DNA from: Candidatus Stercoripulliclostridium sp.
GTDB lineage: Bacteria; Bacillota; Clostridia; Christensenellales; DTU072
Assembly: GCA_045577735.1 (NCBI GenBank)
Contig: JAZNIY010000025.1
Location: 48,964 to 112,963 of the forward strand
DNA: 64,000 nucleotides
Direction of reading: 5' to 3'
Position 1 is the stretch's first letter, and every line of letters begins with the position of its first letter. A model generated the notes under the pieces. The model did no database searches, was not told where the DNA came from, and was given only the letters and a program-made list of their open reading frames with translations. Both the position numbers and the translations under genes were made by a program. Below, one piece after another: positions 9,522 through 13,449 of this stretch.

Positions 9522-9596
9522 TGGTGGAGTGGTAATCAACATAACCGAACACTTAAAAACTCGCACTAGTATATCCAATAGAGAAATTGGAATTTG
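9522..9596 (-). repeat. Cassette-unit tail (12-bp site, conserved spacer, GTGTTCG-N16-CTCCACCA)
   Basis: 52 bp (9546-9597) identical to 10453-10504; homologous to 12575-12624 and 62223-62272. Confidence 0.9.
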
Positions 9597-9597
9597 A

Positions 9598-10257
9598 TTA
9601 TCTCTTTTTATAAATTACAAGCTCGGGATTCTCTCCATTTTCTTCATAAGTACACACGAGAAGGAAATCCATGTTTGCAGCAATGCCAAAGCATCTGCCA
9701 CCGAATTCGCTTTCGAGCTGGCTACCGAGATAGGTTTGCTTATCGTCAAGGAATTTTACCTTTTCTCCATTAGGTAGAGTGTATTCCATATTGATAAATT
9801 CACCCGACAGCACGTTTAATTGTTCCACCTTGGGTAATCCTTCGATATGTAAAAGCGTATTAAATTCGTTAATCAGCTGTTGTTTGAATTCTTCGAGTTT
9901 TTCTTTTCCACCAATTTCAGCGTATCGCTTCCAAATATCAAGGGTGTATTCGCCGTCTGCATAGCACCATTTGCAGTATTCTTCGTTGAAATGACCGTCT
10001 TTCTCACGGCTAAGATTACAATCATCAATAGGCATACCACAGCATTCGCAAATAAGCTCTCTCGGAGAACCGAGGAGGGTGTTGATGGACACATCAAACA
10101 ATTTAGAAAGGAGCTTGAGTGTATCTATATTAGGTATCGTTTCGCCCGTTTCCCACCGAGACACAGCCTGTCTTGTCACAAATAGTTTTTCTGCGAGTTC
10201 CTCTTGAGAGAGTCCTTTTTTCGTTCTTAATTCGTAGATTATATCTTTCGTTTCCAC
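9598..10257 (-). CDS. XRE-family HTH regulator with Zn-ribbon and C-terminal sensor-like domain (cargo)
   Basis: LSQEELAEKLFVTRQAVSRWETG; CECCGMP...YCKWC; palindrome AGCAAC-N5-GTTGCT at 10316-10332 is a candidate operator. Confidence 0.8.
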   Translation of the reverse strand: METKDIIYELRTKKGLSQEELAEKLFVTRQAVSRWETGETIPNIDTLKLLSKLFDVSINTLLGSPRELICECCGMPIDDCNLSREKDGHFNEEYCKWCYADGEYTLDIWKRYAEIGGKEKLEEFKQQLINEFNTLLHIEGLPKVEQLNVLSGEFINMEYTLPNGEKVKFLDDKQTYLGSQLESEFGGRCFGIAANMDFLLVCTYEENGENPELVIYKKR

Positions 10258-10428
10258 AAAATCACCACCTTAGTTAGTTGTGATTATATTATACCAATGG
10301 CGATCAGCATTGACAAGCAACTGTCTGTTGCTCTTTGGTTATCAAATACTTATTTATCTCAACTATTAATTAAAAATATACAACATAAGAACACAAAATT
10401 CAATAACCATAACGTGTGCTTTTCTTTT

Positions 10429-10503
10429 TGGTGGAGTAGTGGTAGGCATAATCGAACACTTAAAAACTCGCACTAGTATATCCAATAGAGAAATTGGAAT
10501 TTG
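10429..10503 (-). repeat. Cassette-unit tail, second copy
   Basis: Same 75-bp layout as 9522-9596. Confidence 0.9.
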
Positions 10504-10507
10504 AAAA

Positions 10508-10870
10508 TCATATTGGTGTTCCTACTTCTATTAAATTACCATCCAAATCGTAGAAGCGGATTACTCGTTGTCCCCAACTATGTGTCATAAGATGATTTAC
10601 ATATTCAATTTTTGGGTATAGTCTTTCTAGTTTTTCAATAAAAGATTCGATATCTTGCTCTTCAAAATACAATTCGCAAGAATTGCTTTTTGGAATAATA
10701 TCTTTATTTAAAAACGATCTCCATATTTTCTCATCTTGAAGAACTAAACCATCTGTTAAAATCATATTGCCATCGTTGTCAAGAACTAAGTCTATACCAA
10801 ATAATTTGTGATAGAATTCTCTCGATTTCTCTATATCTTTAACTACAATCAAAATGTTCTTCAGTTTCAT
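10508..10870 (-). CDS. VOC/glyoxalase-bleomycin resistance family protein (cargo)
   Basis: LIVVKDIEKSREFY...WGQRVIRFYDLDGNLIEV; start ATG 10870 with GGAG. Confidence 0.85.
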   Translation of the reverse strand: MKLKNILIVVKDIEKSREFYHKLFGIDLVLDNDGNMILTDGLVLQDEKIWRSFLNKDIIPKSNSCELYFEEQDIESFIEKLERLYPKIEYVNHLMTHSWGQRVIRFYDLDGNLIEVGTPI

Positions 10871-11055
10871 ATTGTATCTCCAAAAAATTCTTATTTGACT
10901 AATAACTTCAAATTTAATATACCACACAAAAATAAAGAAGGCAATAGCCGTAATGTGTGTTGGCTTTGATATAATCGGTGTCGACAAGGGTGACGCGAAA
11001 CACTATCTCAAACTAAGTAATGATAAAATAAGAGTAAAGCGCTTGTAATACTTTT

Positions 11056-11295
11056 TAGTTGGTAAATATACTTGAACGCAATGCGTTCACTTTCGCCAGG
11101 TTTTTGCTTAGCAAAATGCCAAACTTGTTTTGGCTATAATGTGAGCAACGCGAACTATAATTTGAACGAAGTGAGTTACTCGCAAAAACTTGCGCACCCC
11201 GTTTGCTTTGCAAAAGGGGTAAGTGCTCGCCTTGTCTCCACCGCACACAAAAGAAAAAGACGAACTTTAAGTTCGTCTTTTCGTGTGTGGTGGAG
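11056..11295. repeat. Structured non-coding 'head' element, copy 1
   Basis: ~105-bp core near-identical to 13152-13257 and 63351-63457; several hairpins. Confidence 0.9.
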
Positions 11296-11462
11296 TGCCG
11301 ACAAACATAATCGAACACTTATATATGTGAGATTATCGTATCATATATTTACCCAATTCTCAATTTCTATTTTATATCATTTTTTTAAAGAATTAATTTG
11401 GGGAACTATGTCGTGTTTTTTTCGTTTAAATATGAGTGGCGGAGGGCGTAACAAGAAACTAT

Positions 11463-12227
11463 TTATTTTTTGTTTTGTTTTACTAGCTTTTTCCCAATCT
11501 TTTGAAACACTTCTTTTGTTACCTTAACATCCGAAATCATTAGAATTAACACTATAACAATAATACCAAAGGCTGTTAAAGTTATATATTGGGATACACC
11601 AGGTATTATAAAAGGCAAGCCACTCCTATAAAACATATAATCTCCGGTTAATCCAAGAACATGTATATCAATGACTTCACAATTTATAAAATGCAAAAGT
11701 GTGCCGAGGAAGGTCCATCCGAAGTCCTTAATATTCGGCACATATTTTTTACTTGCATACTCAAACACGGGAATAAAGAGTAATCCAGTATGTTGAAGCA
11801 CACTCTTGAGAATAGGAAACACAAAAACAGTATTGCAGAAAATTCCATCTGGCATGGCGAACGTCAATATCCCACCAATAAATCCAAACAAATAAAACAT
11901 TTTTTTCATAATCTTGTTATCAAGCAATGCCGCAATTGGCACTAGGATGCCATTAAGATTACAAGGATACATTGGATATAAATCTATCCATGGGGATTTG
12001 TTGACGGTTATGTATATAATTCGCCAAAAAACCTCAAAAGCAAATTGGAACCCTGCTATGCCAATAAGTATTTTCCTTTTGGTTACGTCAGATATTTTTT
12101 TATTTGCTCCAAGTATTGCACAAATGCTCACACCGACTAAAACGACCACAATCACCACCAAATGCATTGTTTGGTATTCATATGCCCCGGGTGTGCCCAT
12201 ATTGCCATTAAACCAATTTTTGATCAT
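11463..12227 (-). CDS. YwaF/TMEM164-like integral membrane protein (cargo)
   Basis: Multi-TM; LYPMYPCNL, QHTGL, DYMF motifs; AAGGAGG RBS. Confidence 0.65.
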   Translation of the reverse strand: MIKNWFNGNMGTPGAYEYQTMHLVVIVVVLVGVSICAILGANKKISDVTKRKILIGIAGFQFAFEVFWRIIYITVNKSPWIDLYPMYPCNLNGILVPIAALLDNKIMKKMFYLFGFIGGILTFAMPDGIFCNTVFVFPILKSVLQHTGLLFIPVFEYASKKYVPNIKDFGWTFLGTLLHFINCEVIDIHVLGLTGDYMFYRSGLPFIIPGVSQYITLTAFGIIVIVLILMISDVKVTKEVFQKIGKKLVKQNKK

Positions 12228-12574
12228 ATTGATAATCCTCCTTGTCTTTAATGTATCTTAATAAATATAATATCACATTTTTATTGCAAAACAAACAATT
12301 TTATTTTCTAGTATTAAGTTAGAATAATAGTTATTTAGTGTCGATGGAACTTTTAGGAGAGATTTAGACTTAAGGAATATTAAAAATGAGCATTCACATT
12401 TATCGTCTATTTAATAGTATGGATATATTCCTAAATAAGCCAACAAGAATGAGTCCCGATGAAAATGGTTTTTTGTTGCCTTTTGGCATAAGAGCCTAAC
12501 ACACCCCATTCTCATATCAAGAGGCTTTCGTGGCATAAAACGTTGTTGCTACTTTTGAAAAATATCCAATAAAA

Positions 12575-12624
12575 CGAACACTTAAAATACGCACCAATAT
12601 ACCAAATATATAAATTGGAATTTG
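12575..12624 (-). repeat. Cassette-unit tail, diverged copy lacking the CTCCACCA end
   Basis: CGAACACTTAAAATACGCACCAATATACC...AAATTGGAATTTG. Confidence 0.75.
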
Positions 12625-12635
12625 TAATTACGCTA

Positions 12636-12965
12636 TTATTGTTTGTTATTCTTTTCGATCGTAATACTTGATACAATAGCATATATGAGAGTAATGATAA
12701 CAACCGCTACACCCACGAAGGAAATCCAATATGCTTCAAGCAACACAGCGAGAGCGAGCAATAAAAAGACGATTCCAAACAGTAAAAAAACAATAGCCGA
12801 TTGGCGATAATATGGCTTTTTATTCATTTTCTCACGTTCTTGCTTCGATGCATAGATGTAAGCATTGTTAAAAAGAAACCCCTTTTCCATAAAGGATCTG
12901 ATACTCATGAAAAACAAAAAAACGGATACTGCAAAAAGAATACTTGCAATAATAATTTCTTTCAT
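12636..12965 (-). CDS. Small three-TM membrane protein, DUF3784-like (cargo)
   Basis: EKGFLFNNAYIYASKQEREKMNKKPYYRQS loop between TM helices; GAGGTG RBS. Confidence 0.65.
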   Translation of the reverse strand: MKEIIIASILFAVSVFLFFMSIRSFMEKGFLFNNAYIYASKQEREKMNKKPYYRQSAIVFLLFGIVFLLLALAVLLEAYWISFVGVAVVIITLIYAIVSSITIEKNNKQ

Positions 12966-13060
12966 TATCTGTCACCTCTACAAATTCTTATTTATCTATC
13001 AAATCTTTTTTAAATATACCATATAAGAACAAAAAACTCAATAACTATAATATAGGGACG

Positions 13061-13403
13061 GTGGACGATAACGGACCGCGAAAGACTGTCTCGCGTAATG
13101 TGAAATATGTAATTAAGTTTGCAACACGTAATAGTGGCAATTGGTGGAATATACTTGAACGCATCGCGTTCACTTTCGCCAGGTTTTTGCTTAGCAAAAT
13201 GCCAAACTTGTTTTGGCTATAATGTGAGCAACGCGAACTATAATTTGAACGGAGTGAATATAATTCAAATTCGCATTTTTTAGACTCACTTACGCTCGAA
13301 TTATAGTTACTCCGTAACATTATAATCAAATTCTTGCGAATTTGACGCTGTCTCCACCGCACACAAAAGAAAAAGACGAACTCTAAGTTCGTCTTTTCGT
13401 GTG
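13061..13403. repeat. Structured non-coding 'head' element, copy 2, directly abutting the tRNA 3' end copy
   Basis: Shares its left part with 63260-63457 and its terminal hairpin with 11230-11295. Confidence 0.9.
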
Positions 13404-13449
13404 TGGTGGAGACAAGGGGAGTCGAACCCCTGACCTCTTGAATGCCATT
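13404..13449 (-). repeat. Prophage att site: 46-bp duplicate of the tRNA-Ala 3' half
   Basis: Identical to 21955-22000. Confidence 0.95.

Follow-up and report, generated by a model that had tools for sequence, protein, structure and literature searches.

The array behind tRNA-Ala(GGC)

The DNA analysed here is a window of 64,000 nucleotides (nt) from Candidatus Stercoripulliclostridium sp., part of a 1.96-Mb genome with 48 tRNA genes (G000; the genomes compared with it include G002, G005, G007, G011 and G015). Between positions 9522 and 13449 it carries an array of small gene-carrying units, read on the minus strand away from the 3′ end of a tRNA-Ala (Table 1). The cassettes follow one order: promoter, a short site (site1), one gene, a second short site (site2) and a tail with a terminal tRNA-like CTCCACCA. 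A longer element, the head, occurs twice.

The initial annotation, made from the letters alone, had described this region as an integrase-less, tRNA-anchored, integron-like array, and its repeats and coordinates were reproduced. The tail signature GTGTTCG-N16-CTCCACCA was found three times on the minus strand (11288-11318, 10429-10459 and 9522-9552), always with the same 16-nt spacing, and two tails share 52 nt exactly (9546-9597 and 10453-10504); units thus end in tRNA-3′-like sequence, as proposed. A promoter-plus-site block (family D1) is present three times (10343-10412, 10884-10953 and 12981-13050), and the two heads share repeats D2 (11065-11174 and 13148-13257, 97% identity) and D6 (11233-11295 and 13349-13411, 98%). 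Two irregularities in the initial description were also found. A fourth GTGTTCG copy, at 12575, lacks CTCCACCA: a 1263-bp block with a YwaF-like gene lies inside tail A, between two AAGTGTTCG repeats. The XRE regulator unit has no long head, none preceding promoter D. By Pfam the four cargo genes are unrelated (DUF3784, TMEM164/YwaF-like, Glyoxalase_2, and HTH_3 with Zn_ribbon_2). Neither the list of open reading frames (ORFs) nor Pfam revealed a recombinase in 9522-13449, in keeping with the initial claim; the nearby tyrosine integrase gene (20875-21873) belongs to a prophage between tRNA and array.

Table 1. Features of the array, its anchor and the two further arrays (window coordinates unless a contig is given)
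Feature	Position	Strand	Details
tRNA-Ala(GGC), original anchor of the array	21955..22030	-	ARAGORN; Rfam tRNA, 68.3 bits; only tRNA gene of the window
Inovirus-like prophage in tRNA-Ala, 8.5 kb	13450..21954	-	Pfam; context, outside the array
Displaced tRNA-Ala 3′ copy, anticodon loop to CCA	13404..13449	-	46-nt exact match to 21955-22000; prophage attR; true start of the array
Head A	13061..13403	-	Terminator hairpin 13370-13398; antisense of tRNA-Ala 3′ end at ~13349-13368 (5′ arm of inverted repeat I6); structured core 13076-13246; terminates in tRNA-Val 3′-end copy GGTCCGTTATCGTCCAC, 13061-13077; covariance model R1, 80.2 bits
Promoter module A and site1	12979..13045	-	TTGAGT-17-TGGTATATT; site1 AAATAAGAATTT at 12982-12993
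Cargo A, DUF3784 membrane protein, 109 aa	12636..12965	-	Pfam PF12650, E = 5e-12
Site2 A and first portion of tail A	12575..12622	-	Site2 AATTCCAATTT at 12612-12622; tail broken off past GTGTTCG
Inserted block, TMEM164/YwaF-like gene at 11463-12227	11319..12574	-	Pfam PF14808; AAGTGTTCG direct repeat at both edges
Remaining tail A/B, GTGTTCGATTATGTTTGTCGGCACTCCACCA	11288..11318	-	Same tail unbroken behind DUF3784 in G005:C17
Head C	10978..11287	-	Terminator 11254-11282; antisense of tRNA-Ala end; core 10993-11163; terminates in tRNA-like GTCACCCTTGTCGACAC, 10978-10994; R1, 83.9 bits
Promoter C and site1	10885..10944	-	TTGCCT-17-TGGTATATT; site1 at 10885-10896
Cargo C, glyoxalase/bleomycin-resistance-like, 120 aa	10508..10870	-	Pfam PF12681, E = 1e-29
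Site2 and tail C	10429..10501	-	Site2 10491-10501; terminal CTCCACCA at 10429-10436
Promoter D and site1	10344..10403	-	TTGAAT-17-TATATT; site1 AAATAAGTATTT at 10344-10355; no preceding head
Cargo D, XRE helix-turn-helix and zinc-ribbon regulator (9598-10257)	9598..10316	-	Pfam PF01381 and PF12674; own promoter at 10288-10316, 11/12 matches
Site2 and tail D, array end	9522..9594	-	Site2 9584-9594; terminal CTCCACCA at 9522-9529
Distal part of the tRNA-Val(GAC) array, tRNA just beyond the window	62741..63594	-	Tail 63568-63594; head core 63275-63450; site1 63166-63180; cargo a 137-aa lipoprotein, 62741-63154
Third array, behind tRNA-Gly(CCC)	G000:C6:50938-53681, on to C5 ~122000-122700		Tail of other type

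The link to a tRNA stood, and was found at other tRNAs as well; what had been taken for the anchoring gene, at 13404-13449, is a displaced 46-nt copy of the gene at 21955-22030. We read the 8.5-kb element between the two as an inovirus-like prophage that would have integrated in the anticodon-loop region of tRNA-Ala. Its genes, as identified by Pfam, include Rep_1 (13472-14512) and a Zot-like P-loop protein (14610-15656), with small ORFs in addition, and on the plus strand a NERD protein (19838-20617) and the tyrosine integrase. The Rep also gave a weak match, below the cut-off, to an IS91 zinc-binding domain (E = 3e-5). A homologous prophage occurs in G011 (85-95% identity), and no match was obtained in the phage collection. 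Since the prophage sits between the two 46-nt tRNA-Ala copies, the array formerly lay directly behind tRNA-Ala(GGC), and the later insertion displaced the stack by 8.5 kb. The hairpin terminator right after tRNA-Ala at the left end of the prophage (21900-21954) resembles the post-tail terminator in the prophage-free G007:C89; along with the tRNA 3′ half, the phage seems to have a duplicate of the terminator of the host tRNA.

Promoter modules, inverted sites and further arrays

The promoter module is 67 nt long (TTGAnT-17-TGGTATATT), lies downstream of a head or a tail and has site1 at its end. Site1, GATAAATWAGAATTT(G), is found 1-4 nt ahead of the ribosome-binding site, and site2, (C)AAATTCCAATTT, immediately past the stop codon. 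The two 15-nt sites are mutually inverted, with two fixed central mismatches (inverted repeat I7). In the 1.96-Mb genome the strict site motif was counted 10 times, compared to about 0.8 expected from base composition: five times in the two arrays of the window, once in the tRNA-Gly array on contig C6 and three times near contig ends or a tRNA cluster, while no array context was seen for the tenth (C4:18893), contexts having been examined for C25, the contig of the window, and C6. Of 71 family genomes, 14 contain the site1 15-mer and one contains the reversed control; some single matches outside the genus and inside genes are probably due to chance.

A conserved promoter-like module precedes three cassettes of the window, and a few cassettes elsewhere lack one. 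Promoter-like sites in total (25) did not exceed shuffled sequences (18.8 ± 4.5), and the weight of this observation lies only in the conserved positions. The 169-nt element between genes has the inverted ends (I7), and its fold as single-stranded DNA (ssDNA) is no better than that of shuffles (z = 0.10).

At least three arrays are present in the genome, behind tRNA-Ala(GGC), tRNA-Val(GAC) and, on another contig, tRNA-Gly(CCC). Just before the tail of the tRNA-Val array lies a gene (G000:C25:112565-113710, partly in the window at 63602-64000) whose 381-aa product combines DUF4041 with T5orf172 (GIY-YIG-like) and is predicted to be nuclease-like. The tail of the tRNA-Gly array contains three direct 7-mers, TGCACCC, and that of G449, from another genus, three GTACGCA in the same place; these triplets look like iterons or protein-binding sites. 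In both the tRNA-Gly array and G449, a lone site2 parts two genes with no scaffold between them. The initial expectation of tRNA linkage elsewhere was borne out, the system being linked to Ala-GGC, Ala-CGC, Val-GAC, Gly-CCC, Ser-GCT and Ser-CGA.

Cargo from five genomes of the genus and two of a second genus includes DUF3784, glyoxalase, XRE regulator, NUDIX, MatE-kinase and melibiase genes, as well as GrpB, HIT, GNAT, nucleotidyltransferase, chromate transporter and lipoprotein genes. Genes in the cassettes of the second genus (G449:C16 and G442:C25) include one that is aminoglycoside-2''-adenylyltransferase-like (PF10706) and one for a chromate transporter (PF02417); judged from these domains, such cargo would be of the resistance type, as in integrons.

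Exchange at the sites and movement between species

Comparison of related genomes located the points at which units differ. Promoter A with its site1 (12979-13045) is 99% identical to G005:C17:518-584, and the next gene is DUF3784 in G000 and OmdA/YdeI in G005; a fixed scaffold with varying cargo, as initially postulated, is therefore what is seen in the two species. Reciprocally, the DUF3784 cassette (12572-12996) is 96% identical to G005:C17 from site1 to tail, and the promoter differs in G005. The glyoxalase cassette (10431-11010) has a 96% identical counterpart on G015:C7, behind tRNA-Ala(CGC) and two heads; it is thus found at tRNA-Ala(GGC) in G000, at tRNA-Ala(CGC) in G015 and at a tRNA-Val in G005. 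Cargo D is 82% identical to a cassette of G002:C9. For the heads, 10977-11295 (head C) is 96% identical to G005:C13, and the 3′ half of head A is 93% identical to a tRNA-Val-linked unit of G015.

Cassettes and head are 96% identical across species, whereas core genes flanking the array reach 68-74% in the same relatives; this contrast rules out local duplication as the only source of the repeats. The high identity of cassettes and head indicates recent movement of units between species. The tRNA genes are 100% identical across species.

The joins at tRNA ends are equally defined. One head start (CTGCAAAACATAG...) comes directly after the tRNA-Val CGTCCACCA in G015 and directly after the tRNA-Ala CTCCACCA in G007, and at least four different continuations follow ...CGTCCAC. 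In G007 the order is tRNA-Ala, head, gene block, tail (CTCCACCA), terminator, then the CrtO-like gene that also forms the far flank of the window array (8798-9265) and borders the tRNA-Ala island in G007. The gene block consists of four called ORFs and an upstream ArsR-like ORF identified by eye. We read the terminator behind the tail as the ancestral one, and the arrangement is a picture of one insertion.

Metagenome contigs from ruminant gut, belonging to three DNA runs (three studies) and one RNA library, were mapped on 7000-22400. The best run contained a fraction of 0.60 of the sampled words of the stretch, and none contained all. The contigs derive from mixed populations and the sides of the joints are short (20-36 nt), so that joints stand for alternative arrangements, not excision; the contigs give no transcript ends, strand or expression level, and uncovered parts are uninformative. 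Joints 12623|12975 and 12627|12981 span cargo A from site2 to site1, and unitigs end at 12612 and 12987, that is, at sites. Joint 10426|13052 leads from head A directly to promoter D. Joint 11311|12575 (run X1; side 20, sequence between the sides marked as not known) omits 1263 nt and is consistent with a form lacking the YwaF block. A joint that goes back, 13055>11291, connects tail B to promoter A and may be the arrangement of another strain rather than a circle. Summed contig depth in the bins at 9570-11111 (XRE and glyoxalase cargo) was about 2 to 18 times that of the flanking bins, depending on run and bin, the sum being no copy number. RNA-library contigs cover parts of three cargo genes and 12238-12486, where DNA carry-over is possible.

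Cross-species breakpoints and metagenome joints thus coincide with the 12-15-bp sites, in agreement with the proposal of the initial annotation that cassettes are exchanged at its 12-bp sites, and point to exchange of cargo precisely there.

The head, a structured family behind tRNA genes

The initial annotation had treated the head as part of a carrier unit. Two copies are indeed present in the array; the head is nevertheless a separate structured repeat family, found also alone behind many tRNA genes. In a whole-genome motif search its core, CCTGGCGAAAG followed by CTTTCGC 95-101 nt on, was found in about two dozen copies, and 12 of the 48 tRNA genes in G000 have the exact motif on their downstream side, at a distance of at most 600 nt. 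The layout, from the tRNA outward, is a terminator hairpin, an imperfect antisense copy of the tRNA 3′ end, hairpin P1, GGTGCRYWAGTT, hairpin P2, AACCTGGCGAAAG, hairpin P3, a TTACRWG motif, GAGACAnnCTTTCGCG and finally a sense copy of the tRNA T-stem and acceptor 3′ strand. The structured core is about 170 nt long. In some copies P2 is enlarged by ~75 nt, which accounts for the 110-nt repeat noted initially.

The 3′ copy often corresponds to its neighbour. In 9 of 13 tRNA-adjacent heads it fits the adjacent tRNA best among all 48, over 12-18 nt compared to 7-9 nt for the runner-up, and in relatives the adjacent tRNA is the best fit in at least 7 of 19 heads. Displaced types also occur: a head of the Ser-GCT type lies behind tRNA-Ser(GGA), and in another genus a Pro-CGG-type head lies behind tRNA-Leu. 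Occupancy varies by species, Ser-TGA and Ala-CGC being occupied in G015 and vacant in G000.

P1, P2 and P3 are kept in all 23 short-form heads despite sequence differences. In an alignment of 44 copies, which was fitted to the model itself, changes on both sides were seen in 10 of 12 P1 pairs and 7 of 7 P3 pairs; the covariation score was 0.253, compared to 0.107 for shuffles, a value reached by none of 500 shuffles and above all slid controls. Of the 16 heads in which both boxes were found, 15 have them 95-101 nt apart, and the sixteenth (C25:62146; 83 nt) is mis-registered. For the tRNA-Asn head the fold reaches -87.1 kcal/mol (shuffles -52.8 ± 3.9, z = -8.7), and the antisense and sense tRNA copies form its closing helix.

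The covariance model matched 22 times in G000, 19 in G005 and 26 in G015. Weaker, diverged heads were found in 16 of a further 20 genomes from the genus; a second genus had a single copy, and the exact pattern is present in 3 of 401 genomes of the order. At G004:C12, in a more distant member of the genus, a diverged tandem unit of ~300 bp lies behind tRNA-Asn between 15-nt direct repeats of the tRNA-Asn 3′ end including CCA; it has only the P1-3′/P2 segment in common with the head. In Rfam, the array window (E up to 5) and 13 loci (E up to 1) gave only tRNA, rRNA (5S and large-subunit, at one locus) and chance-level matches. A hammerhead ribozyme marked by CCTGATGAG or CCTGGCGAAAG found no support in this comparison. 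The head constitutes a new family of structured nucleic acids that contains both a copy and an anti-copy of the neighbouring tRNA end.

Search for a recombinase and related elements

No enzyme family was found to track the system in screens of five genomes each for RVT_1, Phage_integrase, Rep_1, Resolvase, Y1_Tnp, IS110 and TnpB (DDE families and ISfinder were not covered here). Y1_Tnp is present in G000 and absent from G005 and G015; TnpB and IS110 were each found in none of the five. The genome G000 encodes three tyrosine recombinases: a 357-aa Xer-like protein (C5:45534-46607), adjoining an ORF taken for lexA by eye, a 300-aa Xer-like protein (C19:68056-68958) and the prophage integrase. 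No recombinase was identified among the cargo proteins submitted to Pfam, which left out, for example, a 660-aa ORF of the tRNA-Val array and the G007:C89 gene block. A reverse transcriptase on the 1.8-kb contig G000:C11 (RVT_1, 147 bits), with none in G015, probably belongs to a multi-copy group II intron.

The autonomous version with a recombinase envisaged in the initial annotation did not appear in the five genomes screened, and neither did a related element whose integrase uses the same att site. Against the plasmid collection the array matched solely through the 46-nt tRNA piece. Head and tail patterns gave one and six stretches, respectively, in viral contigs, all chance matches on inspection, and none in metagenome contigs. 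A loose promoter-site1 pattern gave 99 stretches in genome contigs; among the 80 listed, three loci (four matches) lie in a true context, all in G005 and G015. No earlier description of the system turned up in a few word-based literature searches. The view that it belongs to no known class therefore held in the Rfam, phage and plasmid collections (ISfinder not covered).

Proposed accretion at tRNA ends and alternative explanations

We consider it somewhat probable that non-autonomous units accrete at tRNA 3′ ends and that a second tier of gene swapping operates at the 15-nt sites. A full unit has as its left end the head (terminator, antisense tRNA 3′ copy, ~170-nt structured core, sense tRNA 3′ copy) and as its right end the tail, finishing in the tRNA-like CTCCACCA. 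A new unit would join straight after ...CCAC(CA) of the tRNA or of the preceding unit; each insertion would remake the target, and therefore units would stack in one orientation. The 67-nt module would drive one gene per unit, and the inverted sites bounding this gene, GATAAATWAGAATTT before the ribosome-binding site and AAATTCCAATTT after the stop, would allow a swap exactly there. Joining would proceed by site-specific recombination, with an enzyme presumably acting in trans, either a transient integrase from a phage or an integrative and conjugative element, or the one Xer-like recombinase of the host. In the head, covariation of the hairpins might point to an ssDNA or RNA stage. This accretion model is the best fit to the anatomy, the precise ...CCAC(CA) joins, the G007 insertion and the identity across species.

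Several observations weigh against it. Many 3′ copies of heads end 1-3 nt before CCA, and some are degenerate. Tails have the Ala-type end even in tRNA-Val arrays; those of the G002 array lack a tRNA-like end, and this array is oriented divergently from its tRNA. Some cassettes (G005:C1, G005:C17 and G449:C16) have no adjacent tRNA in the available sequence. Apart from the prophage integrase, none of the arrays examined yielded a recombinase, either inside or alongside, and the crossover of this integrase is probably located in the anticodon loop rather than at CCA, because its 46-nt identity block begins there. The G015 genome (96% complete), with its 26 heads and several cassettes, has one tyrosine recombinase, a 360-aa open frame that we read as the counterpart of the 357-aa Xer-like gene of G000, orthology being presumed; serine recombinase, Rep_1, Y1 transposase, reverse transcriptase, IS110 and TnpB were all missing there. 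A circular form or excision product was not demonstrable in the contigs from mixed populations. Finally, covarying hairpins are unexpected for double-stranded att arms: a purely double-stranded mechanism leaves the head covariation unexplained, and we keep an RNA or ssDNA stage open.

A tentative alternative, which we regard as rather unlikely, takes this last point further. The cassette system would be of a new kind, with no need for a recombinase encoded by the element. The ~170-nt head, whose two arms copy a tRNA 3′ end, would direct its own integration next to that tRNA, in the form of folded ssDNA or of an RNA serving as guide or template. The ...CCAC end laid down in this way would serve as landing pad for stacking cassettes of promoter and gene, and genes would be traded at the 15-nt inverted pair with its two fixed mismatches, either through template switching coupled to replication or through a host factor, for instance the single Xer-like recombinase.

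The main rival to accretion is a homology-driven mosaic, without any dedicated recombination, which we judge rather unlikely. In such a mosaic tRNA genes, heads, promoters and tails would act as portable homology for RecA-type or homology-facilitated illegitimate recombination after uptake or transduction, and sharp edges would be the points where homology stops. That no recombinase tracks the system favours it, as do the tRNA genes and heads, 100% and 96% identical across species, and the chimeric nature of head A, whose Ala-type 5′ part and Val-type 3′ part are fused within the conserved core. However, modules down to 67 nt have been exchanged with sharp edges on both sides, and identical edges recur in independent comparisons and in the metagenome joints. 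Nor can homology alone explain how unrelated genes came to share 15-nt inverted sites placed 1-4 nt away from the ribosome-binding site.

It is improbable, in our view, that the head is chiefly a functional structured RNA tied to its tRNA rather than selfish DNA, such as an acceptor/T-arm mimic produced when its antisense and sense copies pair, with cassettes merely gathering nearby. The covariation in P1 and P3, the fold of the tRNA-Asn head with the two tRNA copies as closing helix, the fixed spacing of the boxes and the presence of the family in most of the genus are all as expected for such an RNA. The head nevertheless has no evident promoter and is separated from the tRNA by a terminator, the second heads of tandem sets lack the antisense arm, and no listed RNA contig lies on a head, though contigs cannot prove absence. 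Species-variable occupancy and heads of the 'wrong' tRNA type also argue against it, and the covariation comes from an alignment fitted to the model.

That the ~158-bp site2-tail-promoter-site1 segment is a Correia-type miniature inverted-repeat transposable element, moved by a DDE transposase encoded elsewhere and trapping genes between its copies, is very improbable: site2 and the reverse complement of site1 do agree at 16 of 19 positions at the scaffold ends and the promoter faces outward, but the genome has just 10 site motifs, without visible dispersed solitary copies where the context was examined (C25 and C6), target-site duplications were not observed, a lone site can part two genes without scaffold, and promoter and tail parts recombine independently; the search for a partner transposase was not exhaustive for DDE families and did not extend to ISfinder.

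Comparison with known systems

By analogy, the system resembles tRNA accretion islands, integron arrays and the dif modules of Acinetobacter, and appears to lack a defining property of each. Cis-mobilizable elements (CIMEs) of streptococci accrete at tRNA sites. As in CIMEs, the units have tRNA-3′-derived ends and, in the cargo submitted to Pfam, no integrase or transfer genes; they end in ...CCAC(CA) and begin right after such an end. An autonomous relative with an integrase on the same att site was not found in the five genomes or in the viral and metagenome contig scans. For the tycheposons of Prochlorococcus, neighbouring elements with partial tRNAs in between have been described, as have remnants and PCR-detected junctions of elements in tandem (bioRxiv 10.1101/2020.12.28.424599). 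Shared with both classes are the stacking at one tRNA, with newer units pushing older ones outward, the partial tRNA 3′ ends in between and the existence of integrase-less units. In contrast, the units here measure 0.2-2 kb and mostly hold a single gene, no integrase-bearing parent was found, and the shared core is about 7-8 nt (TCCACCA). Their left end is a covarying structured element that also occurs cargo-free behind a quarter of all tRNA genes, and a second exchange tier exists at the 15-nt sites within units. A tyrosine recombinase with a replication or packaging module, as in tycheposons, was not seen, the cargo run through Pfam being single accessory genes.

Integrons combine an IntI integrase and its attI site with cassettes that lack promoters, share a common Pc and recombine at folded attC sites. 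Likeness to them lies in the co-oriented arrays of small unrelated accessory genes, as also in attC clusters without integrase (CALINs), in edges a few nt before the ribosome-binding site, in imperfect inverted ends and in a lone site that can part two genes. The label 'integron-like' of the initial annotation therefore holds for the arrays and fails on integrase and promoterless cassettes and, less clearly, on folded attC. Neither IntI nor attI is present, the prophage integrase alone adjoining the array; most cassettes have their own promoter, including the three of the window with the module; tRNA 3′ ends serve as anchors for the arrays; and the sites are unlike GTTRRRY, the element between genes folding no better than shuffles.

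In Acinetobacter plasmids, dif modules are described as genes between inverted short sites, without a recombinase of their own and supposedly moved by host XerC/XerD, the pdif sites being 28 bp long (11+6+11) like chromosomal dif (PMC6449649). Discrete modules, inverted short flanking sites, lack of an own recombinase and varied contexts are common to both systems. Unlike these, the sites here are 12-15 nt, and the arrays are chromosomal, tRNA-linked and belong to a Clostridia lineage. A candidate dif of G000 (C13:~68768; AATAA-TATATA-TTATGAAAAAT), recognized from the general dif consensus, is unlike AAATTCCAATTT.

Folded single-stranded sites recombine in integron attC and in CTX-type integrative mobile elements exploiting Xer (IMEX). 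Comparably, folding of the head can bring its antisense and sense copies together into a duplex equal to the tRNA-gene 3′ end, and an ssDNA phage lies beside the array; the target is a tRNA end rather than dif, and an ssDNA stage and Xer action are putative here. For a derivative of IS200/IS605 (palindrome-associated transposable elements, TnpB omega-RNA) or of IS110 with its bridge RNA, no cognate transposase tracked the element in the five genomes.

If the proposed accretion and exchange are real, bacteria would have a second way, independent of an integrase, to assemble small accessory genes and to trade them. To our knowledge, integrons are not known in this lineage, a group of uncultured Clostridia from the ruminant gut, and the cargo (glyoxalase/bleomycin-resistance-like, nucleotidyltransferase, GNAT, chromate transporter) is of integron-type content. 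The head would bear on how mobile DNA locates tRNA genes, and the modules, tiny and sharply bounded, are directly testable by plasmid assay.

Neighbouring features of the window

Just beyond the array lies a truncated XRE-like ORF (9307-9513). At 9398 the contigs of all three metagenome DNA runs have seven extra bases, TTTCCCG, and the ORF is therefore probably frameshifted in this genome. Further out, a 366-bp stretch with a 76-aa ORF (7147-7512) is absent from the contigs of two runs (X1 and X7); beside it lies the gene of a TIR-domain protein (7580-8686, PF13676), possibly a defence gene bordering the island. On the plus strand at 26858-26940, a ZMP/ZTP riboswitch (Rfam RF01750) scored 56.6 bits, over its gathering score.

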